A DNA stretch of 64,000 bases from Parcubacteria group bacterium GW2011_GWC1_36_108 (GTDB taxonomy: Bacteria > Patescibacteriota > Minisyncoccia > Moranbacterales > GWC2-37-73): assembly GCA_000991245.1 (NCBI GenBank), contig LBRD01000001.1, positions 5,467 to 69,466 of the forward strand. The letters are read 5' to 3'. Made by a program: the position numbers and the translations under genes. Within the stretch, counting starts at the first letter, position 1. Each line of letters begins with the position of its first letter. Shown in pieces: positions 29,199 through 54,977 of this stretch. A model generated the notes under the pieces. It made no database searches and was not told the origin of the DNA. It was given only the letters and a program-made list of their open reading frames with translations.

Positions 29199-30572
29199 CT
29201 ATTTCAATTTCTCTCCAAAATACTTTCCAAGCTCATCAATCTTAATTCTCTCTTGCTGCATCGTATCGCGGTCGCGGACTGTAACAGTACCATCTTCAAG
29301 TGAATCAAAATCAACCGTCACACAATATGGCGTTCCAATTTCATCTTGCCTGCGATAACGCTTTCCAACATTTCCATTATCATCAAACTCACACATAAAA
29401 TCTTCACTTAGGTTTTGGAAAATTTCTTTAGCCTTTGCAACCAACTCTGGCTTATTTTTCATCAATGGAAAAACTGCAACTTTGATTGGAGCCACAGCTT
29501 TAGGGAATTTCATCACAATGCGTTCCCCGTCTTCAAGCTTCTCTTCGGTATAGCCTGCACAAATAGCTGTCAAAATTAATCTATCCAAACCAACTGTCGG
29601 TTCAAGCACGTGCGGAGTGTAGCGCTTATTCGTTGTTGCATCAAAATAATCAAGTTTCTGACCAGAAAATTTTGAATGCTGTGTCAAATCAAAATCTCCA
29701 CGATGAGCTAAACCAAAAAGCTCACCAAACCCGAATGGAAAATTATATTCTGTATCAATTGTCTTTTTAGAATAATGAGAAAGTTTTGCCTTTGGATGTT
29801 CATAGCGGCGTAAGTCTTCTTTTTTAGCGCCGATAGAAATTGCAAATTCTTCCTGCTCATCCAGCCATTTTTCAAATAACGGTTCCCATTTAGTTTCCGG
29901 CTCAATGAAATATTCAATTTCCATTTGTTCAAATTCTCTAATTCTGAAAATGAAATTTCTTGCCACGATTTCATTGCGAAATGCTTTTCCAATTTGTGCA
30001 ATTCCAAATGGAATTTTTACACGCATCGAATCAATCACATTTTTATAATCAGAAAAAATTGCTCCAGCAGTTTCAGGACGAAGATATATTGGACCATCAA
30101 CACTATTCATTTCGGTTTGAAACATCTGACTCATATTGCGAACTTCAGTCCAGTCAGACTTTCCACATTCGGGACATTTAAGTCCTGCCTGCAAAGTTTT
30201 TGTCATCTTTTCTAATTCTCCTTCCATATCCTCTCCAGTCAATTCCTTCACAATGTGATCAGCGCGAAATCTTTTATTGCAGTTTTTGCAATCAACAGAA
30301 GCATCGTTAAAGCCACTAATATGACCAGAGGCTTCCCATAATTTCGTGTTAAGCAAAATTGGTCCATCCATTCCAATAATATCTTCTCGTTTTTGGACGA
30401 ACTTCTTCCACCACATCTTTTTAATATTGTTTTTTAATTCCGTTCCATATGGACCATAGCTATATGAATTTGCCAATCCTCCATAAATTTCCGACGTTGG
30501 AAAAATAAATCCACGTCTTTTACAAAATGAAACAATGTCTTCCATCTTGGTAACCTTTTTTTCTTCAGCCAT
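29199..30572 (-). CDS. glyS: Glycyl-tRNA synthetase (dimeric alpha2 type)
   Basis: GGLANSYSYGPYGTELKNNIKK N-terminus and class II motifs; 457 aa. Confidence 0.9.
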   Translation of the reverse strand: MAEEKKVTKMEDIVSFCKRRGFIFPTSEIYGGLANSYSYGPYGTELKNNIKKMWWKKFVQKREDIIGMDGPILLNTKLWEASGHISGFNDASVDCKNCNKRFRADHIVKELTGEDMEGELEKMTKTLQAGLKCPECGKSDWTEVRNMSQMFQTEMNSVDGPIYLRPETAGAIFSDYKNVIDSMRVKIPFGIAQIGKAFRNEIVARNFIFRIREFEQMEIEYFIEPETKWEPLFEKWLDEQEEFAISIGAKKEDLRRYEHPKAKLSHYSKKTIDTEYNFPFGFGELFGLAHRGDFDLTQHSKFSGQKLDYFDATTNKRYTPHVLEPTVGLDRLILTAICAGYTEEKLEDGERIVMKFPKAVAPIKVAVFPLMKNKPELVAKAKEIFQNLSEDFMCEFDDNGNVGKRYRRQDEIGTPYCVTVDFDSLEDGTVTVRDRDTMQQERIKIDELGKYFGEKLK

Positions 30573-30699
30573 ATTTTTATTAGAGCGAGAATATTTTTTA
30601 TTTTTTCACTTAAAACAAGTCTCTTTGGCGTTATGTCAGAAGTTGCAATTGTTTTTCCCTGCCTACCGGCAGGCAGGTGTGACAAAAATAAAAATGTAT

Positions 30700-30960
30700 C
30701 CGAGCGATTAACTATAAAAATTAAATAAAATAAAAACTCGTCTCGAATATAATAAAATGAATTATTACATTCGGGACGAGTCATTAGACACGCGGTTCCA
30801 CCCGACTTCCCCAACATTGCGTCGGGACTACTCTTTTTATGCAAGTTCGATTTTCCCTTATCTTGGGCAAAAAGGAGCCACCCTCTTCTCAACCTCACAT
30901 AGCTCTATTATACTCCTATTGACAGAATTTGTCAATGATGCTATTATTGTTTTTTATGTT
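30700..30960 (-). promoter_or_regulatory. T-box riboswitch leader (glycine) upstream of glyS
   Basis: Sense strand carries AAGUCGGGUGGAACCGCG (T-box consensus AAUUAGGGUGGNACCGCG), an AGAGGGUGG GA/K-turn-like stem I, and the terminator ACUCGUCCCGAAUG...CAUUCGAGACGAGUUUUUAUUUU (30721-30780). Confidence 0.7.
30907..30935 (-). promoter_or_regulatory. Sigma70-like promoter TTGACA-17-TATAAT driving the glyS T-box leader
   Basis: On the minus strand: TTGACAaattctgtcaataggagTATAAT. Confidence 0.5.
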
Positions 30961-31075
30961 AATACCTTCAGTTGTTAGGTCATCAAGCGTATCTATACAT
31001 AAAAAACATTTAATTTTTTGTGTATACGATCTTGCTTGGAAAATTCTTTCCTAGTTTGTTTTGTTTAAAATATAC

Positions 31076-32296
31076 ATGCATAGCAGAAACTTCAAAGCGG
31101 GCAGTTCGCGCCCGACGCGCTCAAGAGCGCCATTCCAAGGCGGACAAAAAAATTCATTCAATAATCAAGGTGGTCGCAAAAAGCGTTTCACTGGAAATTA
31201 TATTGATATCAGCCGCTTTATTAACAAAGCAGCACCAGTCGTCGAAGCTGAGGCGTATGTCCCAGACACTATTTTTGCTGATTTCAAAATAGAAGAATCA
31301 ATCAAGAAAAACATTATCGCTCGTGGATATTTGCATCCAACTCCAATTCAAGATAAAACCATCCCCCACATTCTTGAGGGAAAAGATTTAATTGGTCTTG
31401 CTAATACTGGAACAGGAAAAACCGGAGCATTTTTGCTTCCGATGCTTGATAAGATTATCAAAAATCCTAGCGAGAAATTGTTAGTGGTTGTTCCAACTCG
31501 AGAATTAGCTATTCAAATTCAAGAAGAATTTCGCGCCTTTGCTGCCGGACTTCGCATTGGATCAGTGGTTGTTGTTGGTGGTGCTAACATTCGAACTCAA
31601 ATCGAATGTCTTCGCTCACGTTACAACGTTGTGATCGGAACACCGGGACGACTTAAGGATTTAATCCAACGCAAAAATCTTCATCTTAATACTTTTGCAA
31701 ACGTGGTTCTTGATGAAGCAGACCGTATGCTCGATATGGGATTTATGCCTGACGTGCGATATTTGCTTTCACTTGTTGCGCCAAAAAGACAAACTTTATT
31801 TTTCTCTGCAACGCTTGCTCCAGAAATTGAAAAACTTATTCAAGAATTTTTGGTTGACCCAATAAAGATTTCGATTAGAACTCGAGAAACTGCTGCCAAC
31901 ATCGATCAAGATGTTGTGCGCGTGAAACCAGGCGAAGATAAAATTGAAGTTTTGCAAGACCTACTTCGCAAAGCAAACTTTTCAAAAGTTTTGATTTTTT
32001 CTCGTACCAAACACGGAGCAGAAAAACTTTCCATCATTTTGAGTAAAAATGGATTTAAGGCTCAATCAATTCATGGAGATAAATCTCATGCCAAAAGACA
32101 AAAGGCTTTGAAACTTTTCAAGGAAAATTATGTTGAAATTTTGGTAGCAACCGACGTGGCTGCTCGCGGACTAGATATTCCAAATGTTTCTCACGTGATT
32201 AACTTTGATGTACCTGCAACATACGAAGATTATATCCACCGCATCGGACGAACAGGTCGCGCCGGCAAAACCGGAACAGCTTTGACTTTCGTTTAA
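31076..32296 (+). CDS. DEAD-box ATP-dependent RNA helicase with an Arg/Gly-rich N-terminal tail
   Basis: Q-motif/PTPIQ, GTGKTGAF (motif I), DEAD (VLDEADRM), SAT, HRIGRTGRAG. The ORF track starts at an alternative TTG at 31061. Confidence 0.85.
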   Translation: MHSRNFKAGSSRPTRSRAPFQGGQKNSFNNQGGRKKRFTGNYIDISRFINKAAPVVEAEAYVPDTIFADFKIEESIKKNIIARGYLHPTPIQDKTIPHILEGKDLIGLANTGTGKTGAFLLPMLDKIIKNPSEKLLVVVPTRELAIQIQEEFRAFAAGLRIGSVVVVGGANIRTQIECLRSRYNVVIGTPGRLKDLIQRKNLHLNTFANVVLDEADRMLDMGFMPDVRYLLSLVAPKRQTLFFSATLAPEIEKLIQEFLVDPIKISIRTRETAANIDQDVVRVKPGEDKIEVLQDLLRKANFSKVLIFSRTKHGAEKLSIILSKNGFKAQSIHGDKSHAKRQKALKLFKENYVEILVATDVAARGLDIPNVSHVINFDVPATYEDYIHRIGRTGRAGKTGTALTFV

Positions 32297-32725: not shown

Positions 32726-34495
32726 TTAATTTTCAATAATCCCATTACTTTGTATTTGCCACAAACTGTAATAAACACCTTTTTTAGCTAAGAGTTCTTG
32801 GTGATTTCCCTGTTCGGCTATTTTTCCTTTTTCCAAAACAACAATCTTGTCGAAGTCAACAATCGTCGAAAGTCTGTGAGCAATAACAATGGTGGTGATG
32901 TTCCCTTTGGAAAGTTTTTCGATTTCTTCTTGTATTATTTTTTCTGATTTCGTATCAAGTGAAGCAGTAGCCTCATCAAAAATCAAAATTTCAGGATTCT
33001 TGATTAGCATTCTCGCAATAGCAACTCGTTGCTTTTCCCCGCCTGACAACTTCACTCCGCGCTCGCCAACAACAGTTTCAAATCCACTAGGCAAGTCGTT
33101 AACAATAAAATCATAAATGTTTGCCATTTTAGCTGCCCGCTCAACATCCTCTTTTGTTGCGTCAGGTTTTCCATAAGCAATATTATTAAAAATTGTATCA
33201 TTAAACAAAGTTGTATCTTGAGCAACAATTCCAATATGGCTGCGCAAATTTTGCAACTTAAGATCTCTAATATCCACACCATTGATTGTAATTTTTCCAC
33301 TATCAACATCATACAATCTTAGTAATAATTTTGGCACAGTTGATTTTCCACTGCCGGAATACCCGACCAACGCAACCCTTTTCTTAAATGGCACGGTTAG
33401 TGAAACATTACTAAGCACCTCTCTTTCCTGGGCATAACTGAAATTTACATTTTCAAATTTTATTTCACCTGCCCAATCCTGCAGTTCCTTTGCATCCGTC
33501 TTATCTTGAATTGTATTTTTTTCTTTAAGCAATTTCAACATCTCATCAACATTGGCAAGTCCTTCTTTAATAGCTCTATAGGTAAAACCCAAAAATCCCA
33601 GTGGCACCGCAATATTAGCTAAATAGGTTGTAACCAAAACAAAATCACCAATTGTCGCATCTCCGTTTATAAAATGTTCCACAGCCAAAATCAAAATGGC
33701 TGCAAGACCAGCAGTAATAATAAAACCTTGTCCCATGTTCAAATTGGCTCCAGAGCGTATTGATTTTATGAACATCCCAGACCAATTTTCTAATTGTGAG
33801 TCATATTTTTGATATTCATATTTCTCATTGGTAAAGTATTTTACCGTGTCATAATTCAAAAGTGCGTCGATGGATTGTCCAGTTGCCTGATCATCCAATT
33901 TATTAGTTTCCAAAAGCAAAGCCTGTCTTTTTTCTGTAACATAAATTGTGAAAGCAACGTAGACAACTACAAAAAGTAAAAATGTCAGCACGAAAGATAA
34001 TGGAAAGAGAACGACAAAAACTACACCCACAAAAATTATTTGTATGATAGTTGGAACAACATTGAAAGACAAAAACATAAAAATTGTTTCCAATGCTGTT
34101 GTTCCTCGTGTGATTTTGCGAGTTACTCTTCCTGTTGAACGATCAGCATGAAAGGCTGATGGCAAATCCAAGAGGTGTTCAAAAACTTTAAGTGAAATTG
34201 AGCGACGAATATTGGCCTGAACTTTGGCAAAAGCATAATCCTTCATTCCATCCAACACATTGCCACCCCATTGCAAAGCAAAGAATGAGGCTAGTAAAAA
34301 TGCAATAGTCCCAATTGAAGCCGAAGTGCCATAAATCACTAACAAATCAATCAACTTTTTCATCACGTATGGTCCTGCCACCAACAAAACTTTGGAAGCA
34401 ACTACCAACAGAATACTGAAAAATATCCGACCGCTGAAAACTTTCAAATATGGCATCATATCCATAACATTGATTTTTTGATTGTTTTTTTCCAT
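32726..34495 (-). CDS. ABC transporter, fused permease/ATPase exporter type (copy 1)
   Basis: 6-TM N-terminal domain, Walker A GYSGSGKST, signature LSGGEKQR, Walker B ILIFDEATASLD, H-loop. About 90% identical to 40259-42028. Confidence 0.85.
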   Translation of the reverse strand: MEKNNQKINVMDMMPYLKVFSGRIFFSILLVVASKVLLVAGPYVMKKLIDLLVIYGTSASIGTIAFLLASFFALQWGGNVLDGMKDYAFAKVQANIRRSISLKVFEHLLDLPSAFHADRSTGRVTRKITRGTTALETIFMFLSFNVVPTIIQIIFVGVVFVVLFPLSFVLTFLLFVVVYVAFTIYVTEKRQALLLETNKLDDQATGQSIDALLNYDTVKYFTNEKYEYQKYDSQLENWSGMFIKSIRSGANLNMGQGFIITAGLAAILILAVEHFINGDATIGDFVLVTTYLANIAVPLGFLGFTYRAIKEGLANVDEMLKLLKEKNTIQDKTDAKELQDWAGEIKFENVNFSYAQEREVLSNVSLTVPFKKRVALVGYSGSGKSTVPKLLLRLYDVDSGKITINGVDIRDLKLQNLRSHIGIVAQDTTLFNDTIFNNIAYGKPDATKEDVERAAKMANIYDFIVNDLPSGFETVVGERGVKLSGGEKQRVAIARMLIKNPEILIFDEATASLDTKSEKIIQEEIEKLSKGNITTIVIAHRLSTIVDFDKIVVLEKGKIAEQGNHQELLAKKGVYYSLWQIQSNGIIEN

Positions 34496-53080: not shown

Positions 53081-53355
53081 AATTTTATTTTATAAATTTA
53101 TATCAATATTATAGCACAGTTCTAACTTCCTACTGCCCCACCAAAAAAGAGACTGACTAAAGCCTCTTTTTTATGTCTGCACGGGGTGCAGGAATCCTCC
53201 TCCCCCGAAATTTCTCGCGAATACACAGAGAAATTTCTCCTCCGGAGCCTGGGTTTTCAAAAACGTAAAATCGTTTGCGTTTTTGAAATACCCTTCGATT
53301 CCTACGCAAGCAAATAATAAAACAGACATCATTATGATGTCTGTTTTATTATTTG

Positions 53356-53426
53356 CACGGGCGGCAGGAATCGAACCCACGCCAACGGTTTTGGAGACCG
53401 ACGTACTACCACTATACGACGCCCGC
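53356..53426 (-). tRNA. tRNA-Trp (anticodon CCA)
   Basis: Manual fold: acceptor GCGGGCG/CGCCCGU, anticodon loop CUCCAAA, T-loop UUCGAUU, discriminator G73. A CCA anticodon is consistent with the standard code (UGA is stop). Confidence 0.8.
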
Positions 53427-53465
53427 ATTTTGTAAAAAGGGACAGACAAAGCCCGCCCCTTAATA

Positions 53466-53630
53466 CTATTTCATCTCTTTATGTTCAGTGTGCTTTCGGC
53501 AATGATTGCAGAATTTGTTAAGTTCAAGCTTTTCTTTGATCTTCTTTTTGTTACGAGAAGTGTAATAGTTAATTTCTTTGCATTCACTGCACTTTAATTT
53601 TACTAGATTTTCCTTTGTCTTTGTGGCCAT
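53466..53630 (-). CDS. rpmG: 50S ribosomal protein L33
   Basis: Manual translation gives MATKTKENLVKLKCSECKEINYYTSRNKKKIKEKLELNKFCNHCRKHTEHKEMK: an L33 zinc-ribbon (CxxC...CxxC). Below the ORF-track cut-off. Confidence 0.85.
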   Translation of the reverse strand: MATKTKENLVKLKCSECKEINYYTSRNKKKIKEKLELNKFCNHCRKHTEHKEMK

Positions 53631-53725
53631 ATAATTAGCTTATTAGGCTTTAGCTTTTTAGCTTCTTAGTGAATCCAAAAAACAAAAACTTTTTTATAAA
53701 TAATTCAATTTATTAATTCAACCTG

Positions 53726-53797
53726 AGCCGAAGAGAGGAATCGAACCCCCAACCCATCGCTTACAAAGCGATTGCTCTACCGTTGAGCTACTTCGGC
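53726..53797 (-). tRNA. tRNA-Thr (anticodon UGU)
   Basis: GCCGAAGUAGCUCAACGGUAGAGCAAUCGCUUUGUAAGCGAU...GGUUCGAUUCC; anticodon loop UUUGUAA. Confidence 0.8.
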
Positions 53798-53808
53798 TTA
53801 TTATCTAT

Positions 53809-54423
53809 CTATGTCAATTCTTTCTTATATTGATCTATCCAAGACAATAAAATGTTTAACAACTTTTTATCTGAATAATTTATTGCTATCGTACCCCAGC
53901 GAGATTTATTCTTATATGTTCCCACTCTGCCTTCATGAACATGTGATCTATAAAATCTCTCTGTCGGAATATTGGTTAGCTTTGACCAAAAAAGTTTCAA
54001 TTCTTTTTCATTGTGATCAGGATATATATGTATCAAAGCCTTCAGTCGTTCCTCTTGAACTCCGCAAATCTTCCTCAAAAAATTTAAAAAAACTTTTATC
54101 ATTTCAGGGTCACTATTTGCAAACTTGACTGTATTTTCTGTCTTAGCACCCTCGCCCCAGTACAGCATAATACCGGAAATTTTCAGTTCATTATCAACTC
54201 TTGAAATAACTTTTTTCAATTCAAATGGTTTTTTGTTAAATTTGGTCACATTCAAACTTGTAACAGCCTCGCTTATCGAACGCTTTTTGACATTTTGTTT
54301 TGCCAACCAATAGCACACAGCTGAATTTGAAACATCCAGCTTTTCAGCTATTTGCATTGCAGATAATCGCTCCTCCACATAAAGCTTAGCGATTCTATTT
54401 TGAATATTTTTTGAGATTGCCAT
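53809..54423 (-). CDS. HTH-domain protein, possibly a LAGLIDADG-type homing endonuclease, embedded in the tRNA cluster
   Basis: N-terminal HTH (LSAMQIAEKLDVSNSAVCYWLAK). The central motif GIMLYWGEGAK resembles a LAGLIDADG/GLxDGEG block. Weak assignment. Confidence 0.35.
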   Translation of the reverse strand: MAISKNIQNRIAKLYVEERLSAMQIAEKLDVSNSAVCYWLAKQNVKKRSISEAVTSLNVTKFNKKPFELKKVISRVDNELKISGIMLYWGEGAKTENTVKFANSDPEMIKVFLNFLRKICGVQEERLKALIHIYPDHNEKELKLFWSKLTNIPTERFYRSHVHEGRVGTYKNKSRWGTIAINYSDKKLLNILLSWIDQYKKELT

Positions 54424-54480
54424 GCTACAATATTAGCACAGTAACTGTTATTTGACAAACTACTCTACTATAAATAATTT

Positions 54481-54537
54481 TAAACCAATACCCCAAAAAA
54501 AGGCGTCTGTTTTAAAATTGGTGGGCAGAGAGGGATT
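54481..54537. repeat. Direct repeat copy A: duplicate of the tRNA-Tyr 3' end (19 nt) plus ~37 nt of its 3' flank (att-like)
   Basis: TAAACCAATACCCCAAAAAAAGGCGTCTGTTTTAAAATTGGTGGGCAGAGAGGGATT, versus copy B at 54697-54752 (about 5 mismatches). Confidence 0.6.
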
Positions 54538-54696
54538 TTCGCGTCGCTTGTTCGTCGACACTCACAATCTCCTTGCCCTGGTCAGCGCTGAATGCTCGTA
54601 TTCCTCGCATTCATCGGCGCACGCTGCGTTGTCTTTCTGCTGAAAGCCAACTTGCTTAGCTCCTGACCGTTCGAATCCTATCATTGTCAATAATTT

Positions 54697-54752
54697 TAAA
54701 TCAATGCCCCAAAAAAGGGCATTGTTTTAAAATTGGTGGGCAGAGAGGGATT
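54697..54752. repeat. Direct repeat copy B (the genuine tRNA-Tyr 3' end and its terminator region)
   Basis: Overlaps tRNA-Tyr at 54734-54752. Confidence 0.6.
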
Positions 54753-54819
54753 CGAACCCCCGAAGGCGTAAGCCGTGTGGTTTACAGCCACATCCAGTTG
54801 ACCGCTTTGGTATCTACCC
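54734..54819 (-). tRNA. tRNA-Tyr (anticodon GUA), long variable arm, CCA encoded
   Basis: GGGUAGAUACCAAAGCGGUCAACUGGAUGUGGCUGUAAACCACA...GGGGGUUCGAAUCCCUCUCUGCCCACCA. Confidence 0.85.
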
Positions 54820-54904
54820 GAGATATACTATATGCATATATAGTATTTCGTATTTCATATTAAAATATGAATTACAAAATGCTAGATACGAAATTCTTCT
54901 ACTG

Positions 54905-54977
54905 AGCCGTTGACCGGAGTCGAACCGGTGACCTCGCCCCTACCAAGGGCGTGCTCTACCAACTGAGCTACAACGGC
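54905..54977 (-). tRNA. tRNA-Thr (anticodon GGU)
   Basis: GCCGUUGUAGCUCAGUUGGUAGAGCACGCCCUUGGUAGGGGCG...CCGGUUCGACUCCGGUCAACGGCU. Confidence 0.8.

Follow-up and report, generated by a model that had tools for sequence, protein, structure and literature searches.

A stripped-down, very probably tRNA-sensing glycine T-box in the glyS leader of Candidatus Moranbacteria

The glyS locus and its leader promoter

The window, the whole 64-kb stretch of DNA analysed here, belongs to a host of the lineage Patescibacteria group; Parcubacteria group; Candidatus Moraniibacteriota. The minus strand of the window carries glyS (29199-30572), which encodes an alpha2-type glycyl-tRNA synthetase (GlyRS) of 457 aa. 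Its homologues bear the name glycine--tRNA ligase and contain the domains PF00587 and PF03129 as well as the GlyRS insertion domain. GlyRS identity ranges from 72 to 92% among the best 120 hits, and the named hits are almost all from the CPR. The exact protein is on record for Candidatus Moranbacteria and for 'Parcubacteria group bacterium GW2011_GWC1_36_108', which bears out the CPR-like genome supposed in an earlier reading made from the letters of the DNA (hereafter the sequence-only reading).

Read 5´ to 3´ on the minus strand, the region upstream of glyS comprises a sigma-70 promoter, a structured leader of ~175 nt, a GC-rich hairpin with a U-run, and a further 155 nt that lead to the glyS ATG. 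The -35 hexamer TTGACA (30930-30935, minus strand) and the -10 hexamer TATAAT (30907-30912, minus strand) are separated by a 17-nt spacer. This TTGACA-17-TATAAT promoter, which the sequence-only reading had placed at 30907-30935, matches the sigma-70 consensus at 12/12 positions and is the top promoter-like site of a 1-kb scan. Judged from the promoter spacing, transcription would start at approximately 30900. A promoter has the same placement in all 15 related leaders described below: each contains a near-consensus -35/-10 pair whose -10 box lies just 5-25 nt ahead of a short hairpin.

The -35 hexamer of the glyS leader promoter is supplied by a palindrome, TTGACAAATTCTGTCAA, at 30919-30947 of the window. 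The opposite strand of this palindrome provides the -35 hexamer of a TG-extended promoter (TTGACA/17/TATTAT) that points toward a divergent DEAD-box helicase gene (31061-32296, plus strand). A similar palindrome is located at the -35 of one relative (L172), and a divergent DEAD helicase gene is likewise present in two others (L161 and L166). The open reading frame beside the helicase gene (32726-34495, minus strand, 589 aa) encodes an ABC transporter with fused transmembrane and ATPase parts, not an aminoacyl-tRNA synthetase as had been supposed.

T-box matches and their distribution among glyS loci

The minus strand of the leader contains the T-box sequence AAGUCGGGUGGAACCGCG at 30808-30791, as first noticed in the sequence-only reading. 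The 12-mer T-box core is not significant by itself: with one mismatch allowed, at least one match occurred in 27/100 shuffles. An Rfam scan of the 64-kb window at gathering thresholds returned four tRNAs only and no T-box. When permissive filters were applied to 30400-31200, the T-box family RF00230, for which a scan had been suggested, matched 30932-30769 with 40.6 bits and E=1.9e-7, which is significant although below the gathering score of 93. The 3´ half of this alignment, which covers stem III, the T-box and the antiterminator, has high posterior probability. Conversely, 65 model positions of Stem I are replaced by 3 nt, and the score reaches only 40.6 bits because Stem I is nearly absent. 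The Stem I portion of the alignment was dropped as a structural guide, the 5´ end of the model overlying the promoter.

The CPR relatives score 30-44 bits against RF00230 or are unreported. A canonical Bacillota glycine T-box from Allobacillus, used as a control (L024), scores 76.2 bits and likewise falls below 93 bits. The gathering score by itself is thus no decisive test of a glycine T-box; T-boxes of this kind have no Stem II, which is explained by the strength of the GGC/GCC duplex (PMC7583486). The discriminator half was also built into a covariance model (R1), which detects a single copy in the window, at 30837-30768 with 67.5 bits. This model finds the glyS leader only, in agreement with the earlier statement that the other aminoacyl-tRNA synthetase genes in the window have no T-box.

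The comparison covers 174 glyS loci. A metagenome scan yielded few close relatives, and most of the useful loci were obtained by exact-protein contig look-ups. From these loci, 15 distinct CPR leaders were extracted (the window and 14 relatives), all Moranbacteria-like and located upstream of glyS or of a NUDIX-glyS pair. Across the 174 loci, the T-box core was observed upstream of glyS only in the closest CPR relatives (GlyRS identity of ~69% or more) and in three unrelated loci (L024, L132 and L159). It is absent upstream of glyS in L002, L004-L010 and L084-L087. Two close relatives in which glyS follows argS (L173 and L174) have no T-box immediately upstream of glyS, which indicates that the element is dispensable in the lineage.

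Several arrangements around the element differ between relatives. In L171 (240-2226), whose GlyRS is 92% identical, the T-box is followed by a NUDIX hydrolase gene and then by glyS, so that the riboswitch would control a two-gene NUDIX-glyS operon. The loop of antiterminator helix A2 contains insertions of ~170 nt in L003 (1210-1380) and ~45 nt in L170 (1270-1315), and branched expansions of stem III are present in L081 (700-760) and L083 (965-1025). In L167 and L168 (1-1294), the glyS T-box promoter is immediately preceded by an RVT_1 reverse transcriptase gene and a bAvd gene, a combination typical of diversity-generating retroelements.

The interval between the terminator and the glyS start has features of its own. 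In the window it contains a perfect 20-nt hairpin, CCTGCCTRCCGGYAGGCAGG (30658-30677), which is unique in the window. Among 170 loci, the only other copy was found in L162 (1426-1445), at the same relative position and in the opposite orientation, where it interrupts TACGAAT repeats. The hairpin may be a small inserted palindromic element, or it may serve as a processing or stability hairpin. It does not form a repeated family in the window, and it was left out of the T-box. Several relatives carry three to five short direct repeats (TACGAAT, AACGAAT or GCGGAT) in this interval (L001, 1390-1430; L162, 1415-1470; L169, 1400-1480; L083, 1115-1160). Such repeats are also located upstream of glyS in L173 (1380-1480) despite the lack of a T-box there, and they may form a protein-binding array.

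The putative specifier hairpin and terminator switch

The 5´ domain of the window leader folds into a three-way junction in the whole-leader minimum free energy (MFE) structure computed with RNAfold. Its base helix P1 is formed by a 5´ strand, AUGUGAGGUUGA (30889-30900), and a 3´ strand, UCGAACUUGCAU (30850-30839), with the junction residues AAAA at 30854-30851 preceding the latter. Between the two strands lie the specifier hairpin, an ultrashort Stem I (30869-30888; stem GAAGAGG/CCUUUUU, loop GUGGCU), and a second small hairpin (30855-30867; CCC-AAGAUAA-GGG); all of these elements are on the minus strand. The second hairpin is present in all five leaders of this subtype with differing sequences, and its loop is unconserved.

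A glycine specifier codon, GGC, occupies the terminal loop of the specifier hairpin at 30879-30877, and it is the codon that the sequence-only reading had expected in the stem I loop. With the significant RF00230 match, this result decides both refuting conditions of that reading in its favour. In the 15 leaders this loop measures 5-10 nt and contains UGGC in 12 and UGGA in three (L163, L167 and L170). The codon variation is thus confined to two glycine codons, GGC and GGA. All 15 leaders have a U directly 5´ of the codon, preceded by a further U in 10/15, and a purine follows the codon in just 6/15. A pseudoknot partner for the loop was sought within each leader, and none was found in 13/15. 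An external partner, namely a tRNA anticodon, would be the natural reading.

Because MAFFT placed stem III and the 5´-domain helices 1-4 nt out of register, the specifier hairpin was scored by an explicit hand parse with shuffle controls, and the three-way junction was assessed by single-sequence folds. The stem of the specifier hairpin covaries across the 15 leaders: 90.7% of the five inner pairs are standard compared with 71.4% in shuffled controls, a value reached in 0/2000 shuffles.

Three scaffolds present the specifier loop. Scaffold A is the three-way junction, composed of P1, the specifier hairpin, the second small hairpin and an A-rich junction; it is found in the window, L161, L169, L171 and L172, and each of the five sequences independently folds in this manner in RNAfold. 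Scaffold B is a textbook K-turn (L001, L163, L164, L167 and L170), in which a GUU or GAU bulge, tandem A-G/G-A pairs and a covarying C-stem lie beneath a 4-bp helix with an 8-nt loop. Scaffold C is a plain hairpin (L003, L081, L082, L083 and L162).

The stem-I GA motif claimed in the sequence-only reading is vestigial in the window. Its 5´ half, GUUGA, is present at 30893-30889; the partner GA on the 3´ side is missing, and UUGA pairs with UCGA in an ordinary helix. A K-turn between GUUGA and the P1 3´ strand was considered for the window subtype and rejected, as the GA is in register in L161 alone. Watson-Crick pairing of the GUUGA region fits 4/5 subtype-A leaders (L172 was left out of this scoring).

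Stem II and Stem IIA/B are absent. In scaffolds B and C the 11-24 nt between Stem I and stem III are too few for either, and in the window leader a small non-conserved hairpin lies between the specifier hairpin and stem III. The AG bulge and the GNUGNRA-type distal-loop motif are absent from all 15 CPR leaders, and both are present in the unrelated loci L024 and L159. The distal elbow-binding platform and the internal specifier loop (S-turn) are likewise missing in 15/15 leaders. The element accordingly departs from the 'classic' Firmicute design, a point missed in the sequence-only reading: little remains of Stem I but a small hairpin that carries the specifier in its terminal loop, and there is no distal platform.

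The downstream half follows the established order of elements. The discriminator motif of T-boxes is RRRxG-stem III-AA (PMC7583486, PMC7778990). Its counterparts in the window, all on the minus strand, are a purine-rich string, AAAAAGAGUAG (30828-30838), stem III (30809-30827; UCCCGAC-GCAAU-GUUGGGG) and an invariant AA at the boundary with the antiterminator (30807-30808). The window fits the motif loosely (AGAGUAG-stem III-AA), and five relatives fit it perfectly (AGGUG-stem III-AA). The antiterminator (30771-30805, minus strand) is the MFE structure of leader nt 1-138, before the 3´ arm of the terminator is transcribed. Helix A1 pairs 30805-30801 with 30775-30771, and helix A2 pairs 30793-30789 with 30780-30776, including a G-U pair at its base. 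This A2-base G-U pair is described as the primary steric sensor of the aminoacyl group (PMC7583486). A 7-nt T-box bulge, UGGAACC (30800-30794), is located between A1 and A2. Some relatives have UGGAAAC in place of UGGAACC, and UGGA itself occurs in every leader.

In an alignment of 11 leaders made with MAFFT, the AA that follows stem III is invariant, as are UGGAA-C and GCG. Covariation was assessed on these 11 leaders with a hand-written structure (stem III, A1 and A2), and controls were obtained by sliding the partners 1-3 columns. Standard pairs account for 94.3% of cells in the discriminator half compared with 42-50% in the slid controls; 11/17 pairs vary on both sides, and the observed values were reached in 0/500 shuffles. 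For stem III (helix 1), 5/6 pairs vary on both sides, and none of the 11 aligned leaders lacks the A2-base G-U pair.

The UGGA of the bulge predicts a tRNA with U73, and bacterial tRNA-Gly is generally U73. tRNA-Gly genes were sought in the window and 170 loci, and a single one was found, in the unrelated lineage of L104; it has U73 and the anticodon loop UUGCCAA. This tRNA-Gly(GCC) gene (1018-1090) lies directly upstream of a glyS that has no T-box. The window itself contains a tRNA cluster at 53355-54977 (minus strand), in the order Thr(GGU)-Tyr, a gap of ~940 nt and Thr(UGU)-Trp, which includes no tRNA-Gly.

An intrinsic terminator hairpin (30737-30780, minus strand; -26.1 kcal/mol) extends over the 3´ strands of A2 and A1 and is directly followed by the U-run UUUUUAUUUU (30727-30736). 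Its 5´ arm begins with CUCGUCCCGAAUG at 30780 and its 3´ arm ends with GAGACGAG at 30737. The segment 30780-30771 of the 5´ arm constitutes the 3´ strands of both antiterminator helices, and owing to this shared strand the antiterminator and the terminator are mutually exclusive. The hairpin, the U-run and the alternation with the antiterminator were correctly described in the sequence-only reading. Its sequence for the 3´ arm required correction, from CAUUCGAGACGAG to ...UAUUCGAGACGAG, which gives a G-U pair; the hairpin contains one C/A mismatch. For the full leader, the terminator fold has a free energy of -50.9 kcal/mol compared with -32.0 kcal/mol for the antiterminator fold, and the antiterminator element alone has approximately -7 kcal/mol. 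Terminators of -23 to -36 kcal/mol with U-rich tails were observed in 15/15 leaders, in which the arm sequences differ and the pairing is kept. A simple terminator scanner reported no terminator, its loop and stem rules being too narrow for this hairpin.

Proposed mechanism, alternatives and significance

The RF00230 match, the recurrence in 15 leaders with covariation, the glycine codons, the switch between two folds and the GlyRS gene downstream make it likely that the element attenuates transcription of glyS as a glycine-specific T-box. The RF00230 score far below 93 bits, the loose RRRxG fit of the purine string GAGUAG, the occurrence of a purine after the codon in only 6/15 leaders and the lack of the element in L173 and L174 count against this reading. 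Overall, the Moranbacteria glyS leader is very probably a real tRNA-sensing T-box in a stripped-down form.

A mechanism can be proposed from these features. Transcription would initiate at ~30900 from the consensus sigma-70 promoter, and the first ~60 nt would fold into the three-way junction, whose 7-bp hairpin arm would display U-GGC-U in a 6-nt terminal loop. The specifier loop would pair with the anticodon of tRNA-Gly(GCC), possibly with an additional pair between U and A37. The canonical discriminator would form downstream, with the purine string, stem III, AA, A1, the UGGAACC bulge and A2 closed by the G-U pair. UGGA would capture the 3´ UCCA of uncharged tRNA-Gly and stabilise the weak antiterminator, which would allow readthrough into glyS. 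If the tRNA is glycylated or unbound, the far more stable terminator would form and transcription would stop at the U-run. In this mechanism tRNA-Gly would be gripped at two points only, the anticodon loop and the UCCA-3´/UGGA contact. Extended loop-loop pairing could compensate for the lost contacts: UGGC or UUGGC may pair with tRNA nt 34-37 or 34-38 (GCCA or GCCAA), and UUGGA in the GGA-variant leaders could pair with UCCAA.

The main doubt on T-box function arises from the known requirements of these riboswitches. Reviews hold that a T-box acting on transcription requires a long Stem I, the apical platform of which docks the tRNA elbow (PMC7583486, PMC11297988); this elbow platform is held to be essential, and disabling it abolishes readthrough (PMC7583486). 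Ultrashort Stem I's are characteristic of T-boxes that act on translation, most of them actinobacterial, and such truncated arms hardly bind tRNA unless Stem II is present (PMC7583486, PMC11297988). With a grip at two points, tRNA binding may thus be too weak, or too slow, to decide the outcome while transcription proceeds. The chances appear about even that the leader represents the smallest natural T-box, a co-transcriptional sensor that grips tRNA-Gly by a loop-loop 'kissing' helix and the 3´ end alone.

Four alternative explanations were weighed, and the conservation pattern, the promoter placement and the terminator anatomy disfavour each of them as far as can be judged from comparative data. 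The first is that the leader is a decaying relic that has lost tRNA sensing, its terminator acting as a constitutive or otherwise regulated attenuator. Such decay would agree with the drastically reduced recognition arm, the lack of a T-box in the close relatives L173 and L174 and the large insertions in L003 and L170. However, UGGA, the G-U wobble, the AA and the glycine codon in the loop are all kept down to ~69% GlyRS identity, compensatory changes maintain the helices, and the codon drifts only within glycine codons. Such features would not persist in a relic, and this explanation is considered unlikely.

A discriminator-only sensor, which captures the tRNA 3´ end and leaves the GGC unread, is considered quite unlikely. 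The 5´ hairpin would then serve transcript stability, protein binding or folding, which could account for the variation of its scaffold between relatives (three-way junction, K-turn or plain hairpin) and for the missing conserved purine after the codon. Against this, what alone stays invariant in the 5´ domain is the UGG(C/A) of the unpaired terminal loop, which matches the amino acid of the synthetase. Moreover, UGGA by itself cannot separate tRNA-Gly from other tRNAs with U73, and a lone discriminator binds tRNA weakly (PMC7583486).

It is very unlikely that a full-length Stem I of the glyQS type, with K-turn, internal specifier loop, AG bulge and distal loop, was missed and that the true promoter lies further upstream. 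The Rfam alignment formally begins at 30932, within the proposed promoter, and AGUA and UGA-like strings occur in the promoter region. However, 3 nt stand for 65 model positions in that alignment, and no AG-bulge or GNUGNRA-type motif is present, unlike in the Bacillota control L024 and in L159. The -10 box of L001 lies just ~45 nt beyond the end of a tRNA-Arg gene, and the promoters abut the hairpin at 5-25 nt in 15/15 leaders, which would make a long Stem I upstream impossible.

Least probable of all, and barely credible, is a translational T-box as in Actinobacteria with a sequestered Shine-Dalgarno sequence. In its favour, ultrashort Stem I's have so far been described in translational T-boxes (PMC7583486). 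Against it, what competes with the antiterminator in 15/15 leaders is a GC-rich hairpin with a U-run, the glyS start of the window lies 155 nt past the U-run and this distance varies in the relatives, L171 has an entire NUDIX gene in between, and Stem II and IIA/B are lacking. The variable and often long distance of the start codon from the U-run, together with the terminator anatomy, points to transcription attenuation rather than Shine-Dalgarno sequestration as the mode of control of the predicted glycine T-box.

Compared with the glyQS/glyS T-boxes of Bacillota (RF00230; structures from B. subtilis, G. kaustophilus and O. iheyensis), the CPR leaders are alike in gene, GGC specifier and lack of Stem II. 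They also share the purine-flanked stem III, the AA, the UGGAACC bulge, the G-U wobble at the base of A2 and the terminator/antiterminator switch. The CPR leaders differ in that Stem I is cut at the specifier, so that the codon lies in a 5-10-nt terminal loop and not in an internal S-turn loop, and in that the AG bulge, the distal loop and the conserved purine after the codon are missing. In addition, the host belongs to the CPR, and the window subtype has a three-way junction in place of the K-turn. In a survey of glycyl T-boxes, C. tetani was reported to use a GGA specifier and streptococci to have lost the K-turn; all glycyl leaders of that survey keep the AG bulge, the apical loop and the purine after the codon (PMC11404447). 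The streptococcal glyQS leaders tolerate loss of the GA motif in the same manner as the window subtype, whereas they retain a long Stem I with AG bulge and apical loop (PMC11404447).

The translational ileS T-boxes of Actinobacteria (Sherwood et al. 2015; structures from M. tuberculosis and N. farcinica), as they are summarised in PMC7583486, likewise have a truncated Stem I without an elbow platform, and their 'ultrashort' Stem I retains a basal K-turn, as do five CPR relatives. The CPR leaders differ from them in having a terminator with a U-run and a glycine rather than an isoleucine codon, and a linker of 11-24 nt replaces Stem II in the K-turn and plain-hairpin relatives. The insertions of ~170 nt in L003 and ~45 nt in L170, and likewise the branched stem III expansions of L081 and L083, recall the 'stem Sa' of staphylococcal glyS leaders (PMC9177973), a lineage-specific insertion in the antiterminator/terminator domain; the window leader has no such insertion. 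A literature search for T-boxes in CPR, Patescibacteria or Parcubacteria, in which journal coverage was incomplete, found no report. The CPR element thus joins an ultrashort Stem I, the lack of Stem II and a terminator, features not reported together.

If the element is functional, a transcriptional T-box can dispense with the elbow platform that has been held essential. If the minimal reading is true, the 5´ scaffold would be freely exchangeable between a three-way junction, a K-turn and a plain hairpin, with no obligatory K-turn or Stem II. Whether a T-box works without a K-turn is a question that a T-box review lists as open, and the CPR family offers a test of it. The leaders would provide a natural minimal scaffold of ~100-130 nt for structural, kinetic and synthetic-biology work, and a direct test of whether anticodon and 3´-end contacts suffice for a co-transcriptional decision. 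For annotation, they are a caution that covariance-model searches at curated thresholds miss reduced T-box variants. Gene regulation in the CPR has been described as virtually unknown (PMC11665869); a functional glyS T-box in Moranbacteria would extend tRNA-sensing riboswitches to the Patescibacteria (CPR).
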